IMG/VR virus record: IMGVR_UViG_2703718823_000018
Strand: one strand, 5' to 3'
From: a virus
Taxonomy: Duplodnaviria; Heunggongvirae; Uroviricota; Caudoviricetes
DNA length: 17,832 nt
The position numbers and the translations under genes were made by a program. Under the pieces are notes generated by a model. That model saw only the letters and a program-made list of their open reading frames with translations, had not been told where the DNA came from and did not search any database. This document shows, in pieces, positions 1 to 17,832 of this stretch (its first letter is position 1; each line of letters opens with the position of its first letter).

Positions 1-318
1 GTCATATGTCTCCGGCAGCGGCAGCCCCTCGCCAAAAGACATCGAGTTGGACTGCCCGGCCAGCGCAATGACAAAGTAATATTCCGGTTCGCTGGTGGTG
101 CTGATAACAGCGCCACCATCACCCGACGGTTGCACCACCACAGGTGTGGTGACATTACCTTCTGCGACAATCGCCTGAATAAGTGCTGCGCCATCATCCG
201 TATACGAAGAAAACGGCCCGCCGTATGGTTGCCATCCTTCACGAATTTTTTGAGCAAGCGCATCCGCAAGGTCTGACGGCGATGCCGCCCTGACCACGTC
301 ATAGTGTTTAAATGCCAT
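1..318 (-). CDS. N-terminal part of a NanS-p-like prophage sialate O-acetylesterase (DUF1737-like N-terminus plus SGNH-hydrolase GQSN motif); gene continues past the window start
   Basis: ATG at 318-316 preceded by GGGAGGA. Translation MAFKHYDVVRAASPSDLADALAQKIREGWQPYGG...VIALAGQSNSMSFGEGLPLPETYD, open to position 1. The GQSN block is the typical SGNH esterase motif I. Not in the ORF track because it is truncated. Confidence 0.55.
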   Translation of the reverse strand, partial: MAFKHYDVVRAASPSDLADALAQKIREGWQPYGGPFSSYTDDGAALIQAIVAEGNVTTPVVVQPSGDGGAVISTTSEPEYYFVIALAGQSNSMSFGEGLPLPETYD

Positions 319-515
319 GAATCCTCCCGGCCGGGATAATGTTGTGAGTCAGATAAGGGGCGGGCTGAAGTCCGGAAGTTACAGGACAATGACAGAAGGA
401 AGACTACAGCCCGCAATACGAAAAAGGCCGCGCAGTTGCGCAGAGTGATTACTGTCGGGTATTATTCGCCAGCTGAAAAATTGATTACTTCACGTTTTGT
501 TGTTTATTCCTTGCT

Positions 516-544
516 GCCCGCGTCTCCCGGCGCGGGCTTTTTTT
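516..544 (+). terminator. Intrinsic terminator, plus-strand orientation
   Basis: 7-bp GC stem (gcccgcg 516-522 / cgcgggc 531-537) followed by T7 at 538-544. Confidence 0.5.
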
Positions 545-550
545 GCATGT

Positions 551-576
551 AAAAAGGCTCCTGCGATGAGGAGCCT
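551..576 (-). terminator. Intrinsic terminator, minus-strand orientation, downstream of the tRNA array
   Basis: Perfect 8-bp stem (aggctcct 555-562 / aggagcct 569-576); on the minus strand it is followed by TTTTT (complement of 551-555). Confidence 0.5.
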
Positions 577-883
577 GGATATATGCCTAATCTCTGTATA
601 CAGCATGATGCCGGGTGCCTCCCGGTGAGTTCAGTATCAGCACCTGAACCCGCACCAGATAAGGGATATAACCAACCACCTGTCGCTGATATGCCCCTCC
701 GCACAGGGGGATTCACCATGCCAGTTTCTTTTAACAAATACTCAGTCTGACAGGCAACTGTCAACTGACTGAATTGTGAGACATTTAAAATTTTCGGGGC
801 ATGACTGATACCCGGCTAACCACCTGATGCTTCCTTTTTTAGCAACAAACAGGTCCACCAAAGTGAGACAGAAAAAATAAGTG

Positions 884-960
884 TGGCGCGTTGTACTGGA
901 TTCGAACCAGTGACCGATTGCTTAGAAGGCAATTGCTCTGTCCGGCTGAGCTAACAACGC
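884..960 (-). tRNA. tRNA-Arg (anticodon UCU)
   Basis: Reverse complement gcgttgttagctcagccggacagagcaattgccttctaagcaatcggtcactggttcgaatccagtacaacgcgcca folds as a cloverleaf: 7-bp acceptor stem, TTCGAAT T-loop, anticodon loop cTTCTAa, 3' CCA. Confidence 0.85.
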
Positions 961-973
961 ATGATGCTGATAA

Positions 974-1050
974 TGGACCGCCATCGAGGACTCGAACCCC
1001 GCGCAGCCAGCTCCGAAGGCTGGCGCTCTATCCCGATGAGCTAATGGCGG
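974..1050 (-). tRNA. tRNA-Arg (anticodon UCG)
   Basis: Reverse complement ccgccattagctcatcgggatagagcgccagccttcggagctggctgcgcggggttcgagtcctcgatggcggtcca: acceptor ccgccat/atggcgg with a C1:G72 pair, anticodon loop cTTCGGa, TTCGAGT T-loop, CCA end. Confidence 0.75.
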
Positions 1051-1059
1051 TATGTGATA

Positions 1060-1135
1060 TGGTGGCCCTTGCTGGATTTGAACCAGCGACCTGGCGATTA
1101 TGAGTCGCTCGCTCTCACCACTGAGCTAAAGGGCC
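1060..1135 (-). tRNA. tRNA with CAU anticodon, most likely tRNA-Ile2 (ileX/ileZ-like); Met cannot be excluded from the anticodon alone
   Basis: Reverse complement ggccctttagctcagtggtgagagcgagcgactcataatcgccaggtcgctggttcaaatccagcaagggccacca: cloverleaf with anticodon loop cTCATAa. Closely resembles the E. coli ileX sequence as I recall it. The Ile-Arg-Arg trio downstream of Q is typical of lambdoid and Stx phages. Confidence 0.8.
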
Positions 1136-1175
1136 GGGCGCAGGATAATAACGGTACGTAACTAATCCTGCAATA

Positions 1176-2234
1176 TCATCCATTCTGACTGACTAAATCC
1201 TGTACTTCCCTGACCGTCTGCTCAAAACGTTCAGTCTCCAGCTCAACGCCAGTTGCACGACGCCCCAGCGCCATCGCAGCTTTGACTGTCGAACCCGACC
1301 CCATGAAGAAATCTGCAACCAGGTCACCCGGACGACTGCTCGCACTGATTATCTGCTGCAGCATTTCTGCCGGTTTTTCGCACGGATGTTTCCCGGGATA
1401 GTACTGCACCGGTTTATGCGTCCACACATCCGTGTACGGCACCTGCGCAGTTACGCCAAAATACCGCCGCAGATGCTTATATTCACTCTGCAGTTCCGCA
1501 TACTGCCGGTTCAGTGAAGTATACGTCTCCAGCAGCTGGTGGTGGGGCTTTTCCAGTTCACCGCGCTGATGCTTCTCTTCTGCCACCCGGGCAAACAGCG
1601 CCTGTAATTTCAGATAATCGCTTTCGTTCGGTAGCTGCCACTGACCGGCACTGAACCAGTGCGACACCATGTTTTTCTTTCCTGTGGCATCCACTATCTG
1701 TTTTGCCGTTATCCCCAGGGCAGCACGCGCATCACGAAAGTAAGCAATCAGCGGAGCCATCACATGCTGTTTCAGTGCCCTGCCCTTCGCCTCATACCCG
1801 GCATCTTTCGGGCGATACGGCCCCTGATAATGTTCCGCGAACAGAATGCGCTCTGTGGCGGGGAAATACGCCCTCAGGCTTTCCTTGTTGCACCCGTTCC
1901 AGCGTCCGGACGGCTTCGCCCAGATAATATGGTTCAGCACACTGAAGCGTTCACGCATCATGATTTCGATATCAGATGCCAGGCGATGGCCACAGAACAG
2001 GTAAAGACTTCCGGCAGGTTTCAGCACCCGCCAGAACTGCGCAAGACACTGGTCCAGCCATTTCAGGTAATCATCGTCGCCCTTCCACTGGTTATCCCAG
2101 CCCTCAGGCTTCACTTTAAAGTACGGCGGGTCCGTGACTATCAGGTCAACAGAATTTTCGGGTAACGACCGGATAAATTCCAGGCAGTCGGCGTTGATTA
2201 ACTCACAACTGGATATTTTTACAGTGTTAAACAT
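1176..2234 (-). CDS. Orphan DNA methyltransferase (N6-adenine or N4-cytosine, beta-class motif order)
   Basis: 352-aa ORF with motif IV VTDPPYF near the N-terminus and the AdoMet motif FFMGSGST near the C-terminus. No restriction endonuclease partner is visible. Confidence 0.8.
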   Translation of the reverse strand: MFNTVKISSCELINADCLEFIRSLPENSVDLIVTDPPYFKVKPEGWDNQWKGDDDYLKWLDQCLAQFWRVLKPAGSLYLFCGHRLASDIEIMMRERFSVLNHIIWAKPSGRWNGCNKESLRAYFPATERILFAEHYQGPYRPKDAGYEAKGRALKQHVMAPLIAYFRDARAALGITAKQIVDATGKKNMVSHWFSAGQWQLPNESDYLKLQALFARVAEEKHQRGELEKPHHQLLETYTSLNRQYAELQSEYKHLRRYFGVTAQVPYTDVWTHKPVQYYPGKHPCEKPAEMLQQIISASSRPGDLVADFFMGSGSTVKAAMALGRRATGVELETERFEQTVREVQDLVSQNG

Positions 2235-2370
2235 GGATCATTAAGCCTGTCTCTGATAGGCTCATTCTGCTTTTGCGCAAAGCAGTGGGCCTGAGGTTTG
2301 CTTGTGATCCGGACGCATGAGCAGATGGCTGGTGAGTGCCCCTAACACCCACCAGCCGCCCATTTACCAC

Positions 2371-2398
2371 AAATAAAAAAGCCTTCAGGACTGAAGGC
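2371..2398 (-). terminator. Intrinsic terminator, minus-strand orientation
   Basis: Stem gccttcag / ctgaaggc (2381-2398) with a 2-nt loop; on the minus strand it is followed by TTTTTTATTT (complement of 2371-2380). Overlaps the stop of the small ORF upstream. Confidence 0.5.
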
Positions 2399-2582
2399 GT
2401 CTGTAACAACCGAACTGATAGTCTGCCAGCCCCGCCATAACAAGCTGGGTCAGTATTAACTGGCAGCGTTCGCGTGAAAGGTACGTATTCTGTGCAATCT
2501 CCCCGACTGTCGCCGGTTCGGTGACGCTTAATTCATTAAACACCACTCTGGCGGTTTCGGTCATATCCTGCTGTTTCAGCAT
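2385..2582 (-). CDS. Small putative winged-helix DNA-binding protein (65 aa)
   Basis: ATG at 2582 (MLKQQDMTETARVVFNELSVTEPATVGEIAQNTYLSRERCQLILTQLVMAGLADYQFGCYRRLQS). The longer upstream extension in the ORF track overlaps a terminator hairpin and looks non-coding. The RBS is weak. Confidence 0.35.
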   Translation of the reverse strand: MLKQQDMTETARVVFNELSVTEPATVGEIAQNTYLSRERCQLILTQLVMAGLADYQFGCYRRLQS

Positions 2583-2703
2583 GTCTTTTTCCCTTTTCCG
2601 GTTAACGTGACACACCAATAACTCTTGTCGAAAAAGCCAGCAAGCTGAAAGAACGGTATTAATAACCACCAGCGAATTTATTGCGCTGCTGTATATTACG
2701 GAC

Positions 2704-2726
2704 ACAAAAAAACCACCTTCCGGTGG
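2704..2726 (-). terminator. Intrinsic terminator about 70 nt downstream of the Q-like gene; candidate tR'-like element
   Basis: On the minus strand: ccacc-GGAA-ggtgg hairpin followed by TTTTTTT (complement of 2705-2711). Confidence 0.45.
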
Positions 2727-2799
2727 CTTCCTTGTGCGAAAAAAACTTGCATTTCGCCTCGCGATACAGCCTTGCGAAGCTTATACGGATTGAAGCAGT

Positions 2800-3372
2800 T
2801 TATTGATCAGTTTGCAACATTTTTTTCTCTGTAACAAAAGCCATACGCATGGGGGCATGTAACATAAATTCAGATATCCCCAACCACTGATCAATTCGGC
2901 GTCTGCACGTAACCAACGTCCACTCAGGATGATCTGCATTTAACCTTTCGGCCATTTTCAGTTTGCTCATTCCCCGTCCTTCGTACCTTTGCCGGAGAAT
3001 ATTGATTAGTCCGGGATATTCCCCAAGCACCTCACTGATAACGCGATCAATAATCAACGCCTCTGTGTCTGTACAATGTGACAACCAGCTCTTCTGCTTC
3101 CCTCTGGTCATATCCCGAAAAAATGCCTCAAGTTCCGGTTTTTCCAGCCCGGATTTCTTCATTCTGCGTAAAACCTCATTAACTGCTGTTTTCGTCAGCT
3201 TTTTCGAAACCAGTAACCGGTTAAACATATTTCCGGATTTACCCCCACCGATATACGACCACCGCCCCCACATCCGTAATTTCCCCTGGATCCAGACTGC
3301 TTCCAGCGTGTTCAGGCGTAAATGTTCGCCGCTTTTGCCTGTAATTTCCGGATATATCATATTTACGCTCAC
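2800..3372 (-). CDS. Late-gene antiterminator Q-like protein
   Basis: 190-aa ORF immediately downstream of rusA and upstream of terminators and the tRNA array (canonical Q position). Contains RMWGRWSY, resembling the RWGAWA block of 21/DLP12-type Q proteins as I recall them. Start is either GTG at 3372 (GTGA overlap with the rusA stop) or ATG at 3360. Confidence 0.6.
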   Translation of the reverse strand: MSVNMIYPEITGKSGEHLRLNTLEAVWIQGKLRMWGRWSYIGGGKSGNMFNRLLVSKKLTKTAVNEVLRRMKKSGLEKPELEAFFRDMTRGKQKSWLSHCTDTEALIIDRVISEVLGEYPGLINILRQRYEGRGMSKLKMAERLNADHPEWTLVTCRRRIDQWLGISEFMLHAPMRMAFVTEKKMLQTDQ

Positions 3373-3734
3373 TCACTCTCAATTTTGTAAATCTTCACAC
3401 CCAGCCGACCACCAAGAACAAGCTGACCACGTACAATATTGATTTCATCAAACTGCTCATCGTCCATTAACAACCCCGCATGCGTAAGCGCATCCAGCGG
3501 TGCTTTCAGAATATTGTCCAGGTCACGGCGGCGCTTATCCGGTGGTTCTGCAATAATTTTTATTGCCAACCGTCCGGACAGGCTTAATTTCAAGCGCTGC
3601 TGGCGAACAATAAGCGCCACTGCCCGGCGATAACGCTCCCCGGCTTTTGATACAAAATATGTGCTGCCACGGCGTCGCCAGTAAGTGTTCACCGTCGGCG
3701 GGTAAGGCAAAACAAATTCTATGCGTTCGGTCAT
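3369..3734 (-). CDS. rusA: RusA-family Holliday junction resolvase
   Basis: 121 aa, MTERIEFVLPYPPTVNTYWRRRG...DKRRRDLDNILKAPLDALTHAGLLMDDEQ; the DxRRRDLDN acidic block is the RusA catalytic signature. ATG directly abuts the upstream stop (TAAATG). Confidence 0.85.
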   Translation of the reverse strand: MTERIEFVLPYPPTVNTYWRRRGSTYFVSKAGERYRRAVALIVRQQRLKLSLSGRLAIKIIAEPPDKRRRDLDNILKAPLDALTHAGLLMDDEQFDEINIVRGQLVLGGRLGVKIYKIESE

Positions 3735-4799
3735 TTATGCTTTCCACTTCAGAACACCCGAATTTCTCGCGTGCATTAAAAAACGAATCAGCAACAACAG
3801 CTGACTGCCGTGTTTCTCTTCAAAATCTTTTACTCCGGCGTGTAGTTCGTTATGGCATTTACGGCACAACGGAATAACAAACAAATCGTCAGCCTTTGTT
3901 CCCATACCTCCCAGTCCATGACCAATGATGTGATGCGGATCATCTGCCTGATTGCCACACGTCATGCATTTCTGCGTTTTTACCCAGCGCGTGTATACAG
4001 GCATCTCTTCCCGTTGTGGTTTCTGGCGCTGGAGATACTGAGCCGGAGATTCCGGATCAACGGCAATGCTGACCACCGTCTTTTCCTGTGGTGGGTTCTG
4101 TTGCTGGTGCTGGTGGACGTGAGGCGGTAGCGCAATATTTTTTGTGCGCTGCTTCAGTATGCTAGTGGCTGTCTGTTCTCCCGGTACGATGTCGCTCTCA
4201 CTGTATACGGAGCGGATTTTTTCCACCGGTAATCCCAGTGAACGACGCAATACAGACTCCGGAAGCGCATCAGCCACCTGATTGCAGACCGCCCACCAGG
4301 ATAATTCGGCCAGCGATAACTCCCTCTCCTGCGTACCGCTGATTGCGTGACGGATGACGTCAATCATCCATGCTGACAGGTTTTGATGAGCAAGTTGCCC
4401 GAGTGATTCGGATGTCTGGTCACGCAGCTGGTTGTCGCAGTGCCAGCACAACACCATCGCGCCGGTACCGTAACGATGTATGACGATTTCACTGTGATGA
4501 TAGTCACCATGAGGCCACTGGCAGGATTTGACATGACGCAACAGCCAGTCAGACAGTGCCCCAGCGCCACCAGCAGCACGAATCACCCGATCATCGCTGA
4601 AAAATGGCAGTAATGATTTATCCTCCGCCAGCGGCTGGCGAACAGCAGGGACGACTCCGGACGGCAGATTACGCATGCTTTTCGGTTCCGGCTCCACCAG
4701 TACTCGAGGGTTATGGAATACCTGCATGGATTCACGGCCTGGCTTAACGATAACCAGACCGAGTTCCGGTACCAGAACAGGTCGAAGTAATACCCGCAC
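3735..4799 (-). CDS. ydfU: DUF968-type protein with C-terminal HNH-like motif (YdfU-like)
   Basis: 354-aa ORF; C-terminus CMTCGNQADDPHHIIGHGLGGMGTKADDLFVIPLCRKCHNELH is an HNH/zinc-finger signature. Position between rem/hok and rusA/Q matches Qin. Annotated start is GTG at 4799 preceded by GGAGG; start uncertain. Confidence 0.65.
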   Translation of the reverse strand: MRVLLRPVLVPELGLVIVKPGRESMQVFHNPRVLVEPEPKSMRNLPSGVVPAVRQPLAEDKSLLPFFSDDRVIRAAGGAGALSDWLLRHVKSCQWPHGDYHHSEIVIHRYGTGAMVLCWHCDNQLRDQTSESLGQLAHQNLSAWMIDVIRHAISGTQERELSLAELSWWAVCNQVADALPESVLRRSLGLPVEKIRSVYSESDIVPGEQTATSILKQRTKNIALPPHVHQHQQQNPPQEKTVVSIAVDPESPAQYLQRQKPQREEMPVYTRWVKTQKCMTCGNQADDPHHIIGHGLGGMGTKADDLFVIPLCRKCHNELHAGVKDFEEKHGSQLLLLIRFLMHARNSGVLKWKA

Positions 4800-4800
4800 A

Positions 4801-5079
4801 TTACCTCCAGATCCGTTGCTGGAATGTGCGGGACGGACGCGCTGGCCGTTCGGAGTAAGGGAGCCTGACGGAGATTATCCAGTGACGGTAGTCGAGGCTA
4901 AGGGCTTTTTTAACCTCGCATCCGCGCCTGCGGTAACACTGAATGAGCCATTCGGCCTGTTCTTCAGTGCATGGGGGATGCTGGTACCAGTCTGACTTAA
5001 ATGCATGAGAATACCGCTCGTGCGTGTGGGCAAGAACGGTCGAATTATCATGATTGTAATATTTTGCGTTGCGTGCCAT
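4801..5079 (-). CDS. Hypothetical protein (92 aa), translationally coupled to the DUF968 gene
   Basis: ATG at 5079 with GGAGA 7 nt upstream; its stop TAA sits immediately before the DUF968 start. Family not recognised. Confidence 0.5.
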   Translation of the reverse strand: MARNAKYYNHDNSTVLAHTHERYSHAFKSDWYQHPPCTEEQAEWLIQCYRRRGCEVKKALSLDYRHWIISVRLPYSERPARPSRTFQQRIWR

Positions 5080-5145
5080 CGGTTTTCTCCGGTGGCACGG
5101 TGTTACTCAGCGGGAGTTCAGCCCCGCGCAAGATTGTAGATGAGT

Positions 5146-5397
5146 TTATTCTTCTGAAAAAGCAGAAAAGCCAGCTTTTATTCCGATCTCTTTCAATGCC
5201 TGTAATGAAGTGACAAACTCACCGTCGCGCAAGATAAATCCGTCCGTCACTCGGGCATCCACAAAATTAATTAACGCAGCCCCATTTTTTTGCAAACACA
5301 CAATGCGGTAATGACTAACAATATTTCCATTTTCAACGCACACAGCATAGAGGCCATCTTCACAAAAAATTTTACGCAGTTCTTCGATGTTCATCAT
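5146..5397 (-). CDS. rem: Small hypothetical protein (83 aa), Rem-like by size and position
   Basis: ATG at 5397 preceded by GGAAGG. 83 aa, the same length and the same position (between ydfU and hokD) as Rem of Qin; sequence identity is not verified. Confidence 0.45.
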   Translation of the reverse strand: MMNIEELRKIFCEDGLYAVCVENGNIVSHYRIVCLQKNGAALINFVDARVTDGFILRDGEFVTSLQALKEIGIKAGFSAFSEE

Positions 5398-5511
5398 CAG
5401 AATCCTTCCGGATAATTAGCTCTCCCCTTTAAGGGACCATCCCTCTTATCCCTGCGCGCTACTTAAGTATTTTTGATTCTATTCCGGCACCGTCCAGAAC
5501 TTCAAATGCGT

Positions 5512-5545
5512 TGAAAATAAAAACAAAAACCCGCCGAAGCGGGTT
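5512..5545 (-). terminator. Intrinsic terminator of the hok transcript
   Basis: On the minus strand: aacccgc-TTCG-gcgggtt hairpin followed by TTTTTGTTTTTATTTT. Confidence 0.55.
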
Positions 5546-5613
5546 AAGTGCGAGTGCGTTGAGGATGCCTGACTCATCAGAGGTGGCGAGGGATTTCTCC
5601 CCCGCCTGGTCTC

Positions 5614-5769
5614 TTACTCCTCAGGTTCGTAAGCTGTGAAGACAGTGACCTCCGTCTGGCCGGTTCGGATTCGTACCTCGCAGAGGTCTTTCCTCGTTAC
5701 CAGTGCCGTCACAATGACGGTAATACAGATGACGATCAGGGCGACTAACATCGCCTTTTGCTGCTTCAT
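5614..5769 (-). CDS. hokD: Hok/Gef-family type I toxin (HokD/RelF-like), 51 aa
   Basis: Translation MKQQKAMLVALIVICITVIVTALVTRKDLCEVRIRTGQTEVTVFTAYEPEE: transmembrane helix plus conserved RKDLCEVR and TEV..FTAYE blocks of Hok proteins. AGGAG 8 nt upstream of the ATG. Absent from the ORF track (below 60 aa). Confidence 0.9.
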   Translation of the reverse strand: MKQQKAMLVALIVICITVIVTALVTRKDLCEVRIRTGQTEVTVFTAYEPEE

Positions 5770-5825
5770 AGCCTGCTTCTCCTTGACCTTTCGGTCCGTA
5801 AGAGGCTAATCTCTATGTGTCGCAT
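5766..5825 (-). CDS. mok-like upstream ORF (19 codons) coupled to hok
   Basis: ATG at 5825 (MRHIEISLLRTERSRRSRL); its TGA overlaps the hok ATG (cTATGAag). The uORF start lies inside a hairpin (tctatg-tgtcg-cataga, 5812-5828). Analogous to mok but much shorter than plasmid R1 mok. Confidence 0.4.
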   Translation of the reverse strand: MRHIEISLLRTERSRRSRL

Positions 5826-6027
5826 AGATATGGCCTCAGATTAATGTTAAGCGTCTTGCAGGACGCGTAATGTTAACTGGGGCTTTTCTCTATCTGCCTT
5901 TTGGTGTTCATGCCTGAGACAGATAGCCTCAAGCACCCGCAGTTATTCTACTTAACTAAGATTTCCCCGCAAACCGTTTTTGTCCGGCACAGTAAATATC
6001 CAACTAAACCAATGGCGTTCGCTGTAT

Positions 6028-6207
6028 TTACCGCCAGTATTCAATGCACATGACCGCCATGAACACCCCTAAAAAAAGGGCATTTATATGTCCAAACATT
6101 AATATCAAAACATCAATTTTTTCCATATACCTTGCTGTGAAGATGATGGGCATACATGATGCGAACAACCAGAACGCAACAAACAAAAACTGCAATGCGT
6201 TTTTCAT
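6028..6207 (-). CDS. Small hydrophobic (two-helix) membrane protein, 59 aa, in an AT-rich island
   Basis: ATG at 6207 preceded by a GGGGG Shine-Dalgarno. Translation MKNALQFLFVAFWLFASCMPIIFTARYMEKIDVLILMFGHINALFLGVFMAVMCIEYWR has two hydrophobic segments. Surrounding DNA is visibly more AT-rich than the flanks. Confidence 0.35.
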   Translation of the reverse strand: MKNALQFLFVAFWLFASCMPIIFTARYMEKIDVLILMFGHINALFLGVFMAVMCIEYWR

Positions 6208-6327
6208 TATTCCCCCTACAATCAATGTGCAATAACATTTAAACACACCTCAATTTGGCCGGACATATAAATATCTAAACCAGAAAAAATCACTTACATA
6301 GCGTTACAAACTCTTTAGTCTAAATAT

Positions 6328-11076: not shown

Positions 11077-11599
11077 ACAAACCCCTGGCAGACATTTGTT
11101 TATCTGCAAAGTAATATTGATATTGCTGACGATACGCATGCTTGAAAGCAATAGCTTTTTCTATAAGCTCGTCAGTCTCACGTTCCACAACAGCTGGATC
11201 CGCAAAAAGCAGCCCGGACTCCACCACATCGCCATATTCTTTGTTTAATCCGGCGATCATGTACGTAATGCTTTTTCCATCACTGATCTCACGATACAAC
11301 CTGAAATCACTAATTCGGATAGCCTCCATAATTGCCGGAATCAGCGCCGTGAATTTTTTCCGCTTATCCCTGGTGTCGATAGCTTTCCAGCGTTCGAATA
11401 TCTTCACCCGGTTAACGCCCAGCGCCCGTTGATCAACCTCGCCATCATTAAACGTGACGCGTTGAACATCGATGTTCGGGCGTTCTTTCAGAGCCCAGAA
11501 TGCTTCCGTGATTAATATCGTCGCTTGCTCCTGTGTCATTCCTGGTCGACATACCCAGGCATCCAGAGCCTCACAAACCTGTTCAGGGGTGATTTTCAT
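11048..11599 (-). CDS. YdaT-like (CII-position) regulatory protein, 183 aa
   Basis: ATG at 11599, overlapping the dicC-like stop by 17 nt. Contains IDTRDKRKKF, resembling the YdaT block as I recall it; occupies the cII position after Cro. Confidence 0.5.
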   Translation of the reverse strand: MKITPEQVCEALDAWVCRPGMTQEQATILITEAFWALKERPNIDVQRVTFNDGEVDQRALGVNRVKIFERWKAIDTRDKRKKFTALIPAIMEAIRISDFRLYREISDGKSITYMIAGLNKEYGDVVESGLLFADPAVVERETDELIEKAIAFKHAYRQQYQYYFADKQMSARGLYEYRCTTMG

Positions 11600-11810
11600 T
11601 GTTCAACCGCCCCGCCCGCTTTGCCTTACGATATTCGTCATAAACTTTGGGGTCGTACTGAAGTTCCCCGCCGGATGCCTCCTGTAGACGCATCGCGCGA
11701 CCTTCAGGAACCAGTTTCCCCCATGCAGCAACGCTTGCCAGCCTAACTCCTGCGGCATTGGCAAGCTTTGTTTTGCTGCCAAAAAACGCTATAGCATCAA
11801 TTTTCAACAT
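11583..11810 (-). CDS. dicC: DicC/YdaS-like Cro-type regulator (75 aa)
   Basis: ATG at 11810 with AAGGAG upstream. MLKIDAIAFFGSKTKLANAAGVRLASVAAWGKLVPEGRAMRLQEASGGELQYDPKVYDEYRK. Divergent from the dicA-like repressor across a 76-bp operator region. Confidence 0.7.
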   Translation of the reverse strand: MLKIDAIAFFGSKTKLANAAGVRLASVAAWGKLVPEGRAMRLQEASGGELQYDPKVYDEYRKAKRAGRLNNENHP

Positions 11811-11886
11811 ATCGAACTCCTTAGATTTTCCTAAGGAAACTAGATCGTAGAGAAACCTAAGTCAAGAAAAATTAGAATTACCTAAT
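11811..11886. promoter_or_regulatory. Divergent promoter/operator region between dicC-like and dicA-like genes
   Basis: Perfect palindrome CCTTAG-attttc-CTAAGG (11819-11836) plus further CCTAAG/CCTAAT half-sites at 11856 and 11881. The palindrome overlaps the dicC ribosome-binding site. Confidence 0.5.
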
Positions 11887-12294
11887 ATGAAAAACGAAAC
11901 CTTCGGTGCTCGCCTCTTATACAGGCGTAAAAAATTAAAACTGTCTCAGGCCGCATTAGGTAAGCTGGTCAAAGTGGCTCACGTAACAATTTCTCAATGG
12001 GAAAGAGATGAAACACAGCCAGCGGGGAAGAGATTATTCGCACTGAGCCAGGCGCTTCAGTGCTCGCCGACTTGGCTTCTTTTTGGAGATGAAGATAAGC
12101 AACCAGGCGAACCGATCTCAGATAATCAGCCAGTTAATCTGACAGAAGATCAAAAAGAGTTGCTTCAACTGTTCGACGCACTGCCTGAGTCAGAGCAAAA
12201 GGCTCTGTTGTCAGAGATGCGTGCTCGAGTTGAGAATTTCAACAAACTTTTTGAAGAACTACTCAAAGCTCGCAAAAGAAGCGCAAATAAATAA
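11887..12294 (+). CDS. dicA: DicA-like HTH (XRE-family) prophage repressor, 135 aa
   Basis: N-terminal HTH (LKLSQAALGKLVKVAHVTISQWERDETQP), no LexA-type peptidase domain; blocks such as FALSQALQCSPTWLLFGDEDKQP and MRARVENFNKLFEELLKARKR match my recollection of K-12 DicA (135 aa). Confidence 0.85.
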   Translation: MKNETFGARLLYRRKKLKLSQAALGKLVKVAHVTISQWERDETQPAGKRLFALSQALQCSPTWLLFGDEDKQPGEPISDNQPVNLTEDQKELLQLFDALPESEQKALLSEMRARVENFNKLFEELLKARKRSANK

Positions 12295-12359: not shown

Positions 12360-12440
12360 TACATCAAAAAACTTAGGTTTTTCTACATAAAAAGCTTGAC
12401 CACAATTCTTAGGTTATTCTAAATTCTACTCATCAAGACA
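12360..12440 (+). promoter_or_regulatory. Candidate DicA-controlled promoter/operator of the ydfA-dicF-dicB operon
   Basis: Direct repeats aCTTAGGTTtTTCTAcat (from 12371) and tCTTAGGTTaTTCTAaat (from 12407) flank a TTGACC -35-like hexamer at 12396-12401. CTTAGG is the reverse complement of the CCTAAG half-site in the dicA-dicC region. Confidence 0.4.
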
Positions 12441-12501: not shown

Positions 12502-12654
12502 ATGGATACTATCGAGCTTGGCAACAGCGAATCTCTGGTATGCGGCGTGTTTCCCAACCAGGACGGCACGTTTACCGCGATGACGTATACCAGAAGCAAA
12601 ACGTTTAAAACTGAAGCTGGCGCGCGTCGCTGGTTAGCCAGAAACACTGACTGA
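12502..12654 (+). CDS. ydfA: YdfA-like small protein (50 aa)
   Basis: ATG at 12502 preceded by GAGGT. MDTIELGNSESLVCGVFPNQDGTFTAMTYTRSKTFKTEAGARRWLARNTD; first gene after dicA as in Qin. The ORF-track start further upstream lacks an RBS. Confidence 0.65.
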   Translation: MDTIELGNSESLVCGVFPNQDGTFTAMTYTRSKTFKTEAGARRWLARNTD

Positions 12655-12665
12655 TGAGGTTGACG

Positions 12666-13040
12666 ATGGAATTTAAAGATTTACCAGTACCATTCCAGGA
12701 AATGGCATCGAATGTGGTTCGCTCTCAACTGGCGACTCTTGACCTGAGTACCGTAGAAAAAGAAACAATCGACAATATATCCGGTAACGTACGCCGAGCC
12801 TTTATCGGGCTGTACGAAGAGAAGCAGCTCTCTGATAACCAGGATTTACATGAAAAATACTTTCTGGAATTAATGGACATCATTAATAAAGGATTTGGCT
12901 TGTTAATGAAAAAGAAAGGGATTCGAATAGCTCCCCTTGAAAATCATTTTACAGCAAGCAGTATTAATTCCTGTGATTTAAAGCATCACACATCCGATGG
13001 GAAAGTTGAATCAAACAACAAAATATCAATTAATCATTAA
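12666..13040 (+). CDS. Hypothetical protein (124 aa), AT-rich, inside the DicA-repressed operon
   Basis: ATG at 12666 with GAGG 8 nt upstream. Hydrophilic, no recognisable motif. Occupies the slot where K-12 Qin carries ydfB/ydfC, but is not obviously related to them. Confidence 0.5.
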   Translation: MEFKDLPVPFQEMASNVVRSQLATLDLSTVEKETIDNISGNVRRAFIGLYEEKQLSDNQDLHEKYFLELMDIINKGFGLLMKKKGIRIAPLENHFTASSINSCDLKHHTSDGKVESNNKISINH

Positions 13041-13344
13041 TTTATTCACAGGTGAGGTAGAGTGCGTGCGCCGGACACGGATAAGAATCCGGCACTGACA
13101 GTTAACTGAAAAGGATATATCCCTGAAAAGTCAGGGCATAACACGAAAGCGCCCGGCGAAGTTAGTCTCTCTGTATAGGTCGTCGTTAAATTTTCGTCGA
13201 CCGTGCGCTTCCGGTTGTGGCACTCCGCGAAATGGCGCGGAGGTAAGTATGGCGGGGTTATTCCTTCCCCGTTGAGGACACCGGGTTGTCAGGTTGACCA
13301 TACGCTTAAGTGACAACCCAGCTGCAACGCCCTCTGTTATCAAT

Positions 13345-13402
13345 TTTCTGGTGACGTTTGGCGGTATCAGTTTTACTCCGTGACTGCTCTGCCACCCTTT
13401 TT
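13345..13402 (+). ncRNA. dicF: DicF small RNA
   Basis: tttctggtgacgtttggcggtatcagttttactccgtgactgctctgccaccc followed by TTTTT matches my recollection of the 53-nt DicF sequence at all but about one position; located between ydfA and dicB as in Qin. Exact ends are approximate. Confidence 0.8.
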
Positions 13403-13584: not shown

Positions 13585-13773
13585 ATGGAAACGTTATTAC
13601 CAAACGTTAATACGTCTGAAGGTTGTTTTGATATTGGTGTTCTGCTCAGTAACCGGGAGTTTACGGAAGATGCCATTAAGATGAGAAAATATGAACCTTA
13701 TCTTCTCAATGATAATTCCATACTTTCCAGAATTGCCCTTCTTGAACTTGGTATTATCGGAGAACAGCAGTGA
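13585..13773 (+). CDS. dicB: DicB-like cell-division inhibitor (62 aa)
   Basis: ATG at 13585 with GAGGA upstream. METLLPNVNTSEGCFDIGV...FTEDAI closely matches the DicB N-terminus as I recall it. Confidence 0.8.
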   Translation: METLLPNVNTSEGCFDIGVLLSNREFTEDAIKMRKYEPYLLNDNSILSRIALLELGIIGEQQ

Positions 13774-13958
13774 CTTCAGCATTTGCACTGGTGATGACCG
13801 TTTTTCTTATAACGGGTGAGCCACAAAATGTGATTACCGGAATTTATGACAGTAAGTCATCCTGCATTCAGGTAAGGGACGAACAAAAAATCCCCGGTGA
13901 ATGCCTCCCGTTAAAAAAAGTATCGCTGAACCTGAATAACGAAATACCGGCTGGATAA
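13770..13958 (+). CDS. ydfD: YdfD-like small membrane protein (62 aa)
   Basis: GTG start overlapping the dicB stop (GTGA). N-terminal hydrophobic segment SAFALVMTVFLITGEP and ...EQKIPGEC...EIPAG resemble Qin YdfD as I recall it. Confidence 0.6.
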   Translation: MTSAFALVMTVFLITGEPQNVITGIYDSKSSCIQVRDEQKIPGECLPLKKVSLNLNNEIPAG

Positions 13959-14053: not shown

Positions 14054-16525
14054 ATGAGTAAAGTCTTTATTTGCGCCGCTATTCCTGACGAACTGGCAAC
14101 AAGGGAAGAAGGCGCTGTGGCTGTAGCCACAGCCATTGAAGCTGGCGACGAACGCCGTGCTCGAGCAAAATTTCACTGGCAATTCCTGGAACATTATCCG
14201 GCTGCTCAGGACTGCGCTTATAAATTTATTGTCTGCGAGGATAAACCCGGCATACCCCGCCCTGCCCTCGATTCCTGGGATACCGAATATATGCAGGAAA
14301 ATCGCTGGGATGAGGAGTCAGCTTCCTTTGTACCGGTCGAACCTGAATCCGATCCGATGAACGTCAATTTTGACAAGCTGTCCCCTGAAGTACAGAACGC
14401 AGTCCTGGTTAAATTCGACACATGCGAAAACATCACCGTTGATATGGTGATTAGCGCACAGGAATTACTACAGGAAGACATGGCAACATTCGGCGGACAT
14501 ATCGTTGAAGCGTTTATGAAAATGCCAGAAGTTAACTCCATGTATCCTGAACTTAAACTGCATGCCATCGGGTGGGTTAAGCATAAATGTGAGCCTGGCG
14601 CTAAATGGCCTGAAATTCAGGCAGAGATGCGCATCTGGAAAAAACGCCGCGAAGGTGAACGCAAGGAAACCGGAAAATACACGTCTGTTGTTGATCTCGC
14701 CCGTTCCAGAGTAAACCAACAGAACACTGAAAACGCTGCTGAAAAAAACGGAGCTGTCACTGTTGCCGTTCGCCGCGAATACAAACAGACATGGAAAACT
14801 CTCGACAATGAGCTGGCCTGCGCCCTCTGGCCCGGTGATGTGGATGCGGGAAACATTGACGGCAGCATCCATCGCTGGGCAAAAAATGAAGTTATCGACA
14901 ACGACCGCGAAGACTGGAAGCGTATCTCGGCATCAATGCGCAAACAGCCTGAAGCACTTGGCTATGACCGTCAGACTATTTTTGGCCTTGTCCGTGAACG
15001 TCCGATCGACATTCACAAAGATCCCGTGGCGCTGAACAAATACATCACTGAATACCTGACTACAAAGGGCGTGTTTGAAGATGAAGGAACAAATCAGAGC
15101 ACAACTAATACTCTCCCGTCGCCAGTACCAGAAGCTGATGCAGTGGAAACGGCAATGCCGGACAACGAAAAAACCGAATGCAAAGTGGAAGTCGAACCAT
15201 CTGTAGAGCGTGAGGGGCCGTTCTATTTCCTCTTCACCGACAAGGATGGCGAAAAATACGGTCGCGCAAACAAACTTTCTGGTCTGGATAAGGCGCTGGC
15301 TGCCGGGGCAACTGAAATCACGAAAGAAGAATATTTTGCCCGCAAAAACGGCACATACACAGGTTCACAACAAAATACTGATGCATCTGACACGACCGCA
15401 CAACCAGACCTGGTAAAAGTTACCGCTGACGAAGTAAACAAAATTATGCAGGCAGCCAGTATCAGCCAGCCTGACGCCGATAAGTTGCTTGCTGCCTCTC
15501 GCGGAGAATTTGTTGCAGGGATTAGCGACCCGAATGATCCGAAATGGGTAAAGGGGATTGAAACCCGCGATTCTGTAGACCAGAACCAGCAAGAATCGGA
15601 ACAGAACGACCAGAAAGCGGAACAAAACAGCCCAAATGCGTTACAAAACGAGCCAGAAACGAAACAACCTGAACCAGTAGTGCAACAGGAACCGGAAAAG
15701 ATCTGCACCGCCTGCGGTCAGACCGGCGGCGGCAACTGCCCTGATTGTGGCGCGGTGATGGGCGACGCAACATACCAGGAAACATTCGATGAAGAGTATC
15801 AGGTTGAAGTTCAGGAAGATGATCCGGAGGAAATGGAAGGCGCTGAACATCCACACAAGGAGAATGCTGGCAGCGCTCAGGATCACGCCAGCGATAGTGA
15901 AACTGGCGAGACGGCAGATCCCTTAATTACGGTGAACGGTCATCACGTTATCACATCCACCAGCAGGTTGTGGCACCATCTGATGATTGACCTTGAAACC
16001 ATGGGAAAAAATCCTGATGCCCCGATCATCTCAATAGGTGCAATATTTTTCGATCCGCAAACCGGAGATATGGGACCGGAATTTAGTAAGACTATCGATC
16101 TGGAAACTGCTGGCGGGGTCATTGATCGGGACACCATTAAATGGTGGCTTAAGCAATCACGCGAAGCGCAATCTGCCATTATGACCGATGAAATCCCGTT
16201 AGATGATGCACTGTTACAATTGCGGGAATTTATCGACGAAAACTCCGGTGAATTTTTTGTTCAGGTCTGGGGAAATGGAGCCAACTTCGACAACACGATT
16301 TTGCGCCGTTCATACGAACGGCAGGGGATCCCCTGCCCGTGGCGTTACTACAACGATCGCGATGTACGCACAATCGTTGAGCTGGGGAAAGCCATAGACT
16401 TCGATGCCAGAACTGTTACCCCATTCGAAGGTGAGCGCCATAATGCACTTGATGACGCCCGTTATCAGGCAAAATACGTTTCAGCTATCTGGCAAAAACT
16501 GATCCCGAGTCAGGCTGATTTTTAA
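14054..16525 (+). CDS. Large multidomain protein (823 aa) with C-terminal DEDDh 3'-5' exonuclease domain; possibly the full-length counterpart of K-12 ydfE
   Basis: Uninterrupted 2472-nt ORF. C-terminal about 200 aa carry DnaQ-like motifs: Exo I MIDLETMG, Exo II WGNGANFD, Exo III HNALDDARY. A C-x2-C-x8-C-x2-C zinc ribbon (CTACGQTGGGNCPDCG) and an acidic Q/E-rich linker precede it. N-terminal about 550 aa unrecognised. Confidence 0.8.
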   Translation: MSKVFICAAIPDELATREEGAVAVATAIEAGDERRARAKFHWQFLEHYPAAQDCAYKFIVCEDKPGIPRPALDSWDTEYMQENRWDEESASFVPVEPESDPMNVNFDKLSPEVQNAVLVKFDTCENITVDMVISAQELLQEDMATFGGHIVEAFMKMPEVNSMYPELKLHAIGWVKHKCEPGAKWPEIQAEMRIWKKRREGERKETGKYTSVVDLARSRVNQQNTENAAEKNGAVTVAVRREYKQTWKTLDNELACALWPGDVDAGNIDGSIHRWAKNEVIDNDREDWKRISASMRKQPEALGYDRQTIFGLVRERPIDIHKDPVALNKYITEYLTTKGVFEDEGTNQSTTNTLPSPVPEADAVETAMPDNEKTECKVEVEPSVEREGPFYFLFTDKDGEKYGRANKLSGLDKALAAGATEITKEEYFARKNGTYTGSQQNTDASDTTAQPDLVKVTADEVNKIMQAASISQPDADKLLAASRGEFVAGISDPNDPKWVKGIETRDSVDQNQQESEQNDQKAEQNSPNALQNEPETKQPEPVVQQEPEKICTACGQTGGGNCPDCGAVMGDATYQETFDEEYQVEVQEDDPEEMEGAEHPHKENAGSAQDHASDSETGETADPLITVNGHHVITSTSRLWHHLMIDLETMGKNPDAPIISIGAIFFDPQTGDMGPEFSKTIDLETAGGVIDRDTIKWWLKQSREAQSAIMTDEIPLDDALLQLREFIDENSGEFFVQVWGNGANFDNTILRRSYERQGIPCPWRYYNDRDVRTIVELGKAIDFDARTVTPFEGERHNALDDARYQAKYVSAIWQKLIPSQADF

Positions 16526-16835: not shown

Positions 16836-17832
16836 AAAAGATAATGTACTGCCACCGCGGGTTAGATCGAATGGTTACAGTTACGTGTGGAAACCAGAAG
16901 GAAGTACAAGAACTATAGGGCTAGGAAGAGTGCGGAAAACCAGCGTAGCTAAAGTCTGGCAAAATTATGAACTGGAAAAAGCAAAACTCCACAACATAAT
17001 GACCGTAGCTAAATTATGGCACATGTTTATGGACTCCCCTGCATTTACAGAACTGGCCCCCCGAACCCAAAAAGATTATCGACAACATCAGAAGGCGTTG
17101 CTGATGGTATTCGGAAAAGTGCTTGCTGATAATGTCAAAACTGAGCAGGTAAGAATTTTCATGGATAAACGAGGGCTTGAGAGCAAGACCCAGGCAAATC
17201 ATGAACTGGCAAGCCTGAGTCGAGTATACGGGTGGGGATATGAGCGTGGATACGTGAAGAATAACCCATGTAAAGGAGTCAGAAAATTCTCTCTTAAAGC
17301 CCGCACTGTTTACATCACCGATGAACAGTATGCAGCGATATATGCGGAAGCAATTCCACAGTTACGCATTGCAATGGAGATTTCCTATCTCTGTGCGGCA
17401 AGGCTCGGTGATGTGCTTGAGTTGAAATGGCAGGATATTATGGATAAAGGGATCTACATTGAGCAAAACAAAACCGGCACCAAACAAATCAAGGAATGGT
17501 CACCGCGATTACGTACAGCGATCCAGTTAGCCCGAAATGTATCTTCCTGTACATGCGAATATGTGATCAATACAACCAAAGGCGGGAAAGTCATAGCTAA
17601 AACGCTGAACAACTGGTGGAATCAGGCTAAACGCTCAGCCGAGCAAAAAGTTGGCGTTCCGTTCGGGTGCAATTTTCACGACATAAAAGCCAAGGGGATC
17701 TCAGATTACGAAGGCAGCAGTCGCGACAAACAAATTTTCAGCGGGCATAAAACAGAAAATCAGGTGTTGATTTACGATCGTAAAACAAAAATCACACCAA
17801 CACTGGATCTGCCGCTCGTGGTTAGCAAGTAG
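16813..17832 (+). CDS. Tyrosine site-specific recombinase (phage integrase), 339 aa
   Basis: C-terminal catalytic region with AARLGD, FHDIKAKG and SGHKTENQVLIYDR (catalytic Tyr); the last block resembles the lambda Int C-terminus. Stop codon TAG is the last three bases of the window. Confidence 0.85.
   Translation: MGRPRKNKKDNVLPPRVRSNGYSYVWKPEGSTRTIGLGRVRKTSVAKVWQNYELEKAKLHNIMTVAKLWHMFMDSPAFTELAPRTQKDYRQHQKALLMVFGKVLADNVKTEQVRIFMDKRGLESKTQANHELASLSRVYGWGYERGYVKNNPCKGVRKFSLKARTVYITDEQYAAIYAEAIPQLRIAMEISYLCAARLGDVLELKWQDIMDKGIYIEQNKTGTKQIKEWSPRLRTAIQLARNVSSCTCEYVINTTKGGKVIAKTLNNWWNQAKRSAEQKVGVPFGCNFHDIKAKGISDYEGSSRDKQIFSGHKTENQVLIYDRKTKITPTLDLPLVVSK

Follow-up and report, generated by a model that had tools for sequence, protein, structure and literature searches.

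A probable modular accessory gene between ydfA and DicF in the early-left operon of a lambdoid prophage

The early-left operons of lambdoid phages and prophages contain short genes of which many are poorly known. Extra genes of lambdoid phages that possess their own promoter and terminator are called morons, according to the definition of Hendrix and colleagues. In Escherichia coli K-12, the promoter dicBp is repressed 22-fold by DicA (bioRxiv 10.1101/2023.04.14.536235). Northern blots and RT-PCR have also revealed a transcript there that extends from ydfA to dicF (bioRxiv 10.1101/2023.04.14.536235; PMC5069750). Balasubramanian et al. 2016 (PMC5069750) already described, in broad terms, that the region upstream of dicF is variable. 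Nearly all of the work on this operon uses K-12, which does not carry the 124-amino-acid gene described here.

The DNA analysed in this study, which we call the window, is a stretch of 17,832 nucleotides. It carries the immunity region and the early-left genes of a lambdoid prophage that appears to be complete. From position 6300 to its end at 17832, the window shares 99.99% identity with E. coli STEC2018-607 (NZ_CP075697.1). The left part (1-6300) is only 81-87% identical to that genome or is missing from it, and the drop in identity therefore places a mosaic boundary near 5100-5520. Since the leftmost 5.5 kb are unlike that strain, the window derives from a different strain that has a related prophage. 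The operon of interest corresponds to the pL operon of lambda and to the dicBF operon of Qin. The genes and RNAs of the window that are needed below are as follows.

545-750, minus strand: STnc100 sRNA
887-1135, minus strand: three tRNA genes
5767-5938, minus strand: sok of a hok/sok locus
11583-11810, minus strand: cro/dicC-like gene (RefSeq annotation)
11887-12294, plus strand: gene of a DicA-like HTH repressor of 135 aa (Pfam HTH_3, 4e-14), 63% identical to K-12 DicA
12502-12654, plus strand: ydfA, the first gene of the operon (Pfam DUF1391, 2e-27; RefSeq WP_073977924.1)
12657-12660, plus strand: GAGG ribosome-binding site, read from the sequence, 5 nt before the ATG at 12666
12666-13040, plus strand: the 124-aa ORF (RefSeq WP_016237926.1; PHROG 6937)
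13041-13345, plus strand: structured untranslated leader (DicF precursor) of 305 nt, conserved with K-12 Qin in the alignment
13346-13397, plus strand: DicF sRNA (Rfam RF00039, 70.1 bits, E = 6e-14)
13585-13773, plus strand: dicB (Pfam DicB, 3.7e-38)
13770-13958, plus strand: ydfD-like gene (DUF1482)
14054-16525, plus strand: gene of an 823-aa exonuclease with an Rv2179c-like domain
right end of the window: xis-like gene and integrase (RefSeq annotation)

As shown in this list, the ORF lies on the same strand as dicF and dicB, between them and the putatively repressor-controlled promoter, within a conserved backbone. The 823-aa protein deserves a separate remark. Its Rv2179c-like 3'-5' exoribonuclease domain occupies residues 641-813 only, no Pfam match was obtained for its N-terminal 640 residues, and ydfE of K-12 is a truncated pseudogene of the same gene.

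The open frame itself runs from 12654 to 13040 (128 aa), and the annotated and conserved start is the ATG at 12666, which gives a protein of 124 aa beginning with MEFKDLP. All homologues start with MEFKDLP or MQFKDLP, and the GAGG site is conserved among the relatives together with this start. RefSeq contains the same 375-nt CDS and the identical protein under the name 'hypothetical protein'. A first-pass annotation of the sequence had described the ORF as more AT-rich than its neighbours, preceded by a reasonable ribosome-binding site and followed by about 300 nt of structured leader before DicF. All of these descriptions were borne out. That is, the GC content of the ORF is 37.3%, against 51.6% for ydfA, 51.8% for the DicF leader and 48.7% for the window, and this value is in the lowest 1% of 375-nt windows. 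The bulk of the AT-richness comes from the 3' half. dicB is as AT-rich as the ORF (37.6% GC). The leader measures 305 nt, and the segment 13041-13400 folds better than all 100 of 100 dinucleotide shuffles (z = -2.5).

The locus was then aligned with Qin of K-12. The two sequences agree at most positions as far as the end of ydfA and then once more from about position 13050; in between, the ORF fills the interval that is occupied by ydfB and ydfC in Qin, with no recognisable nucleotide similarity to either gene. The N-module profile, which represents the N-terminal part of the protein, also found no match among the ORFs of the Qin locus. Kinship to YdfB or YdfC was thus rejected, and the earlier impression that the product is unlike these two proteins proved correct. 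We also considered whether a degenerate remnant of the ORF start follows ydfC in K-12; about 13 of 26 positions match by our own count on the alignment, which is too weak.

Among 5426 complete E. coli genomes, where presence was defined as coverage of at least 80% of the probe or ORF, the 124-aa ORF was present in 723 and parts of it in 1357. The junction of ydfA with the ORF (151-nt probe) was covered in 558 genomes and that of ydfC with the ORF in 830. The ORF starts 11 nt past the stop codon of ydfA, or 22 nt past that of ydfC in other loci, and its downstream junction leads directly into the DicF leader. The order ydfA-ydfB-ydfC, followed by the ORF or a 106-aa variant, DicF and dicB, is found in loci L009 (O169:H41), L010 (O157:H7) and L012. 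Since ydfB, ydfC and the 124-aa gene occur together in many genomes, they are not alternatives. The first-pass annotation had placed the ORF where Qin has ydfB and ydfC; the position is right, but the ORF is not a substitute for these genes.

The backbone of ydfA, DicF and dicB was found in 4658 genomes at 11,085 places. When only the flanks were used as the query, the cargo between ydfA and the DicF leader measured about 0, 390, 510-560, 710-790, 890 or 1000 nt. Its contents were ydfB and ydfC alone (K-12), the ORF alone (the window), both, or either of them with a small convergent antisense ORF. The 124-aa gene was found beside repressors of the DicA type, the RacR type and other types. The comparison across related prophages that had been proposed at the outset therefore revealed presence/absence polymorphism, and it shows that the gene is an optional cassette that does not depend on ydfB and ydfC. 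The place which it occupies, from ydfA to the DicF leader, is a cargo slot with several states. Between about one in seven and one in four of the complete E. coli genomes have a gene with the N-module directly upstream of DicF, and the carriers include ST131, O157:H7 and other STEC lineages.

Several further observations were made in these loci. The small antisense ORFs of other prophages (minus strand; L008 2865-3086, L006 4386-4619 and L011 2799-3236) run towards the N-module gene and overlap its 3' end by 11-23 nt. Two of them gave matches to phrog_7249 and phrog_10348, families of unknown function, and no match was obtained for the others; the window has no such ORFs. In L007 (2668-3635; E. 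coli FDAARGOS_1293), an 855-nt gene of a Rha-family regulator, preceded by a partial duplicate of dicB, lies between DicF and an intact dicB, and the same layout is seen in many ST131 genomes. This insert therefore marks a second variable slot in the operon, which is absent from the window.

The end of YdfA also varies with the cargo. Comparing positions 12630-12654 of the window with L002, L009 and L010, we found that the protein ends in ...LARNTD (50 aa) where the N-module gene comes directly after it and in ...LERNSGE (51 aa) before ydfB. The last codons of ydfA thus change with the downstream cargo, which places a recombination joint within the 3'-terminal part of ydfA. The ORF annotated at the position of ydfA in PPompW prophages has 118 aa (phrog_21318). 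YdfA, the product of the first gene after the pL-like promoter, ends with an arginine-rich stretch (GARRWLARN). Transcription of the operon has to pass the DicF terminator before it arrives at dicB, exo and int. It is pure speculation on our part that YdfA or the structured leader might have a role in antitermination.

In order to judge whether the ORF encodes a protein, we compared seven alleles, namely that of the window, two from E. albertii and four from E. coli. The reading frame is kept in alleles that diverge by up to 15% in DNA. In pairs with enough substitutions, dN/dS was 0.1-0.36, a range that applies to the conserved 5' part as well as to the AT-rich 3' part; the values for the C-terminal half, 0.2-0.36, indicate purifying and not diversifying selection. 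The 124-aa alleles end in ISINH, and this is the case even for those that carry internal insertions or deletions. The ORF is thus under purifying selection, which argues that it is a genuine protein-coding accessory gene. The first-pass annotation had pointed out that the ORF might show no coding-like conservation, or might be a conserved ydfC homologue of ordinary base composition present in all relatives. Conservation of the coding type is present, and no such homologue was found: the gene is unrelated to ydfC, accessory and AT-rich.

The profile search that had been suggested along with these points gave a full-length match to phrog_6937, in which residues 1-124 align with profile positions 1-124 of 124 (E = 1.6e-76, 255 bits). 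The N-terminal 53-63 residues also match PHROGs 1363, 2151, 9419 and 33007. All five PHROGs are listed as 'unknown function', and the 124-aa protein is a member of PHROG 6937 from which it shows no difference. That is, the protein is already catalogued (WP_016237926.1 / PHROG 6937) as a common, uncharacterised 'hypothetical protein'. The matches divide the gene into two parts.

12666-12824, plus strand: conserved N-terminal module, aa 1-53; predicted helical hairpin; 44.7% GC; common to proteins with unrelated C-termini
12825-13040, plus strand: type-specific C-terminal half, aa 54-124; 31.9% GC; predicted helix 61-84, low-confidence tail, conserved ISINH end

The structure was predicted with AF2 using a 26-sequence alignment, and the mean pLDDT was 62. 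Helices 8-23 and 32-55, which form a two-helix hairpin in the first 53-60 residues or so, were obtained at pLDDT 81-87. The values were 51-60 for residues 51-90, about 59 for the helix at 61-84 and below 50 for the tail at 88-124, so that the model is of low confidence beyond residue 55. The protein (14.1 kDa, pI 5.9, without a hydrophobic segment) is thus predicted to be mildly acidic and soluble, with a short polar linker that joins the hairpin to a third amphipathic helix, followed by the low-confidence tail.

The N-terminal module is present in proteins of 60-208 aa from Escherichia and Salmonella prophages, the C-termini of which are unrelated; by our count, at least eight unrelated C-terminal types are joined to the same module. 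In the search of complete E. coli genomes, nucleotide matches stop at ORF positions 113, 160, 181, 244 and 317, which indicates mosaic joints inside the gene; some genomes match the ORF over 1-113, 1-160 or 1-181 only. Some of the alternative C-termini are diverged families themselves (e.g. P0129, P0143 and P0145) and are therefore not mere read-through. Taken together, these results show a narrow Escherichia/Salmonella prophage family in which recombination has joined one N-terminal module to at least eight unrelated C-terminal parts. Stx phages also have the conserved module, at identities as low as about 40% and in a different genomic context. In the Stx2 phage P13374, ORF16 is a 131-aa relative from the exo-xis region with 46% identity over the module; it sits between a DUF2303 gene and ea22-like genes, again in the early-left operon. 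The full 124-aa type had no record in a collection of 50,697 phages, and a scan of the contigs of species genomes found it in two E. albertii loci only.

Searches for a function gave little. No match to the 124-aa protein was found with the profiles of Pfam, NCBIfam and PADLOC; a sub-threshold match to Pfam VLPT was rejected as noise. The sequence-profile search of the PDB gave nothing below E = 0.35, and Foldseek with the AF2 model found no match in the PDB. In BFVD, the sole Foldseek match was a 52-aa homologue from phage phi191, which is itself uncharacterised. Among 1.84 billion representative proteins, 39 matches were obtained at E <= 0.001, and those to the N-module were uncharacterised proteins; the matches of the N-module profile were all hypothetical proteins of Escherichia and Salmonella. 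Pfam found no domain in ten longer family members with other C-termini, and the fusion partners therefore offer no functional hint. A literature search by peptide, accession and PHROG identifiers found no mention of the 124-aa protein, and one on the function of ydfB and ydfC gave nothing useful.

We then considered how the gene would be expressed. The promoter and operator-like elements of the window are listed here.

11820-11833 (plus strand), 11848-11861 (minus strand), 11873-11886 (minus strand): three operator-like repeats between the cro/dicC-like and dicA-like genes; consensus CTTAGGTTNTTCTA
12372-12425, plus strand: dicBp-like promoter region, with TTGACC-18-TAAATT at 12396-12425
12372-12385 and 12408-12421: two exact operator-like repeats at the dicBp-like promoter, one of which overlaps the -10 region

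The 17.8-kb window contains the 14-nt motif five times, where 0.34 occurrences are expected, and all five copies are either between dicC and dicA or at the ydfA promoter; inverted-repeat pairs link these two regions. Judged by sequence, the five repeats have the OR/OL-type operator layout of a lambdoid immunity region. The TTGACC hexamer of the -35 region is conserved with dicBp of K-12 in the alignment. In a consensus scan, TTGACC-18-TAAATT was the sole promoter-like site on the plus strand between the repressor gene and DicF, and the same scan found no promoter-like or terminator-like site on this strand between ydfA and DicF. We infer from homology and motifs that the ORF is probably co-transcribed from the dicBp-like promoter and repressed by the DicA-like protein, although this repressor is only 63% identical to DicA of K-12, where repression and co-transcription were measured. 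Since this promoter carries operator-like repeats in common with the dicC-dicA immunity region, the earlier proposal that the gene is expressed only when repression is lifted seems a reasonable one.

From the above results, we think it probable that the ORF is a genuine accessory gene of the lambdoid early-left operon, namely an optional cassette that is expressed upon derepression and belongs to a modular family with an N-terminal hairpin. The mechanism can be considered as follows. The DicA-like repressor, bound at the operator-like repeats, would keep the promoter at 12396-12425 off. Upon derepression, the ORF would be transcribed from this promoter together with ydfA, DicF, dicB, ydfD and the gene of the 823-aa exonuclease, and the protein would be made early in lytic development. 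The position of the gene in the early-left operon of an apparently complete lambdoid prophage argues for such early lytic expression and against lysogenic conversion. The protein may alternatively be present at a low level in stationary phase, as reported for dicBp in K-12.

As for its role, the product is most likely a small cytoplasmic early protein that acts through binding to other proteins. The hairpin may be a constant module for docking or dimerisation, and the exchangeable C-terminus may set which host or phage protein is bound, by analogy with the host-directed early proteins DicB and YdfD. We regard this division of labour as possible but doubtful; the mosaic pattern is the one observation that suggests it, and functionless recombination at a conserved stretch could mimic such a pattern. 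A bolder and unlikely extension is that the proteins with the MEFKDLP module are polymorphic early prophage effectors, in which the hairpin is a scaffold for swappable 'warheads', each directed to a certain host protein or defence system. If this is true, the lambdoid prophages of E. coli would exchange effectors at a dedicated hot spot, namely the interval from ydfA to DicF.

Other explanations have to be weighed against this accessory-gene reading. The protein may inhibit the growth or division of the host or act in superinfection exclusion, and would then be allied in function to DicF, DicB and YdfD. The same operon encodes three products for which toxicity or an effect on division or lysis has been reported (PMC5069750; the ydfD annotation is 'lysis protein'), and DicB also protects against phage (PMC6832061). 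On the other hand, the toxicity of the operon was studied by deletions of dicF and dicB in K-12, where the ORF does not occur (PMC5069750). The 124-aa protein, moreover, does not resemble DicB, Kil or YdfD and lacks a membrane segment, and we consider such a role rather improbable.

It can also be supposed that the gene encodes a putative anti-defence protein, that is, one made early to block an immunity system of the host, in which case the variable C-termini would be the outcome of an arms race. This is plausible from the position of the ORF in the first-transcribed operon, where such inhibitors occur; Ral and Gam of lambda are examples found there. A small, AT-rich, variably present gene whose family has many alternative C-termini would also suit the idea. 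The protein, however, resembles no known protein in Pfam, NCBIfam, PADLOC, the PDB or Foldseek, and the selection on its C-terminal half is of the purifying and not of the diversifying kind. We think that an anti-defence function is quite improbable at present.

A third explanation denies the protein any function: the ORF would be a by-product of recombination, or a translated spacer that shields the transcript from Rho or RNase E and tunes the output of DicF and dicB. The mosaic joints inside the gene agree with this, as do several frameshifted or truncated variants (P0049, P0073 and P0093) and the very low confidence with which the C-terminal 37 residues are predicted. But dN/dS is well under 1 in both halves, the ISINH terminus survives internal insertions and deletions, and the N-module is maintained in Stx phages in another genomic context; we find a functionless protein very unlikely. 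Least credible of all is that the ORF is a classical moron or a gene for lysogenic conversion, with a promoter of its own that is active while the prophage is repressed. The GC content below that of the flanks and the presence/absence polymorphism between colinear prophages speak for it. Against it are the lack of any flanking plus-strand promoter-like or terminator-like site in the consensus scan, the short distances from the ydfA or ydfC stop codon, and a 3' junction that passes directly into the DicF leader.

Returning to the reading of the ORF as an optional early gene, we think that the gain is modest. The gene is real, optional, modular and independent of ydfB and ydfC, and is otherwise an ordinary accessory gene of a mosaic prophage. 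Because the N-module gene occurs in pathogenic lineages and is absent from K-12, the results obtained in K-12 may not cover the full output of the operon in those strains.

Finally, the gene can be compared with the systems mentioned at the beginning. It resembles ydfB and ydfC of K-12 Qin in that their products are small and of unknown function, and in that they lie in the same interval from ydfA to the DicF leader and are transcribed from dicBp, or in the case of the ORF probably from its dicBp-like counterpart; it differs in that YdfB (42 aa) and YdfC (72 aa) show no similarity to it by profile or nucleotide alignment. The ORFs of the pL/exo-xis region of lambda (orf60a, orf63, orf61 and ea22) are likewise short, variably present and poorly known early-left genes, but the N-module profile had no match at E < 1 among the ORFs of lambda 27.5-36 kb, and kinship to orf60a, orf61 and orf63 was rejected. 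With the lambdoid morons it shares the nature of an extra gene of atypical base composition between conserved neighbours, whereas it lies within a putatively repressed early operon and shows no promoter-like or terminator-like site of its own.
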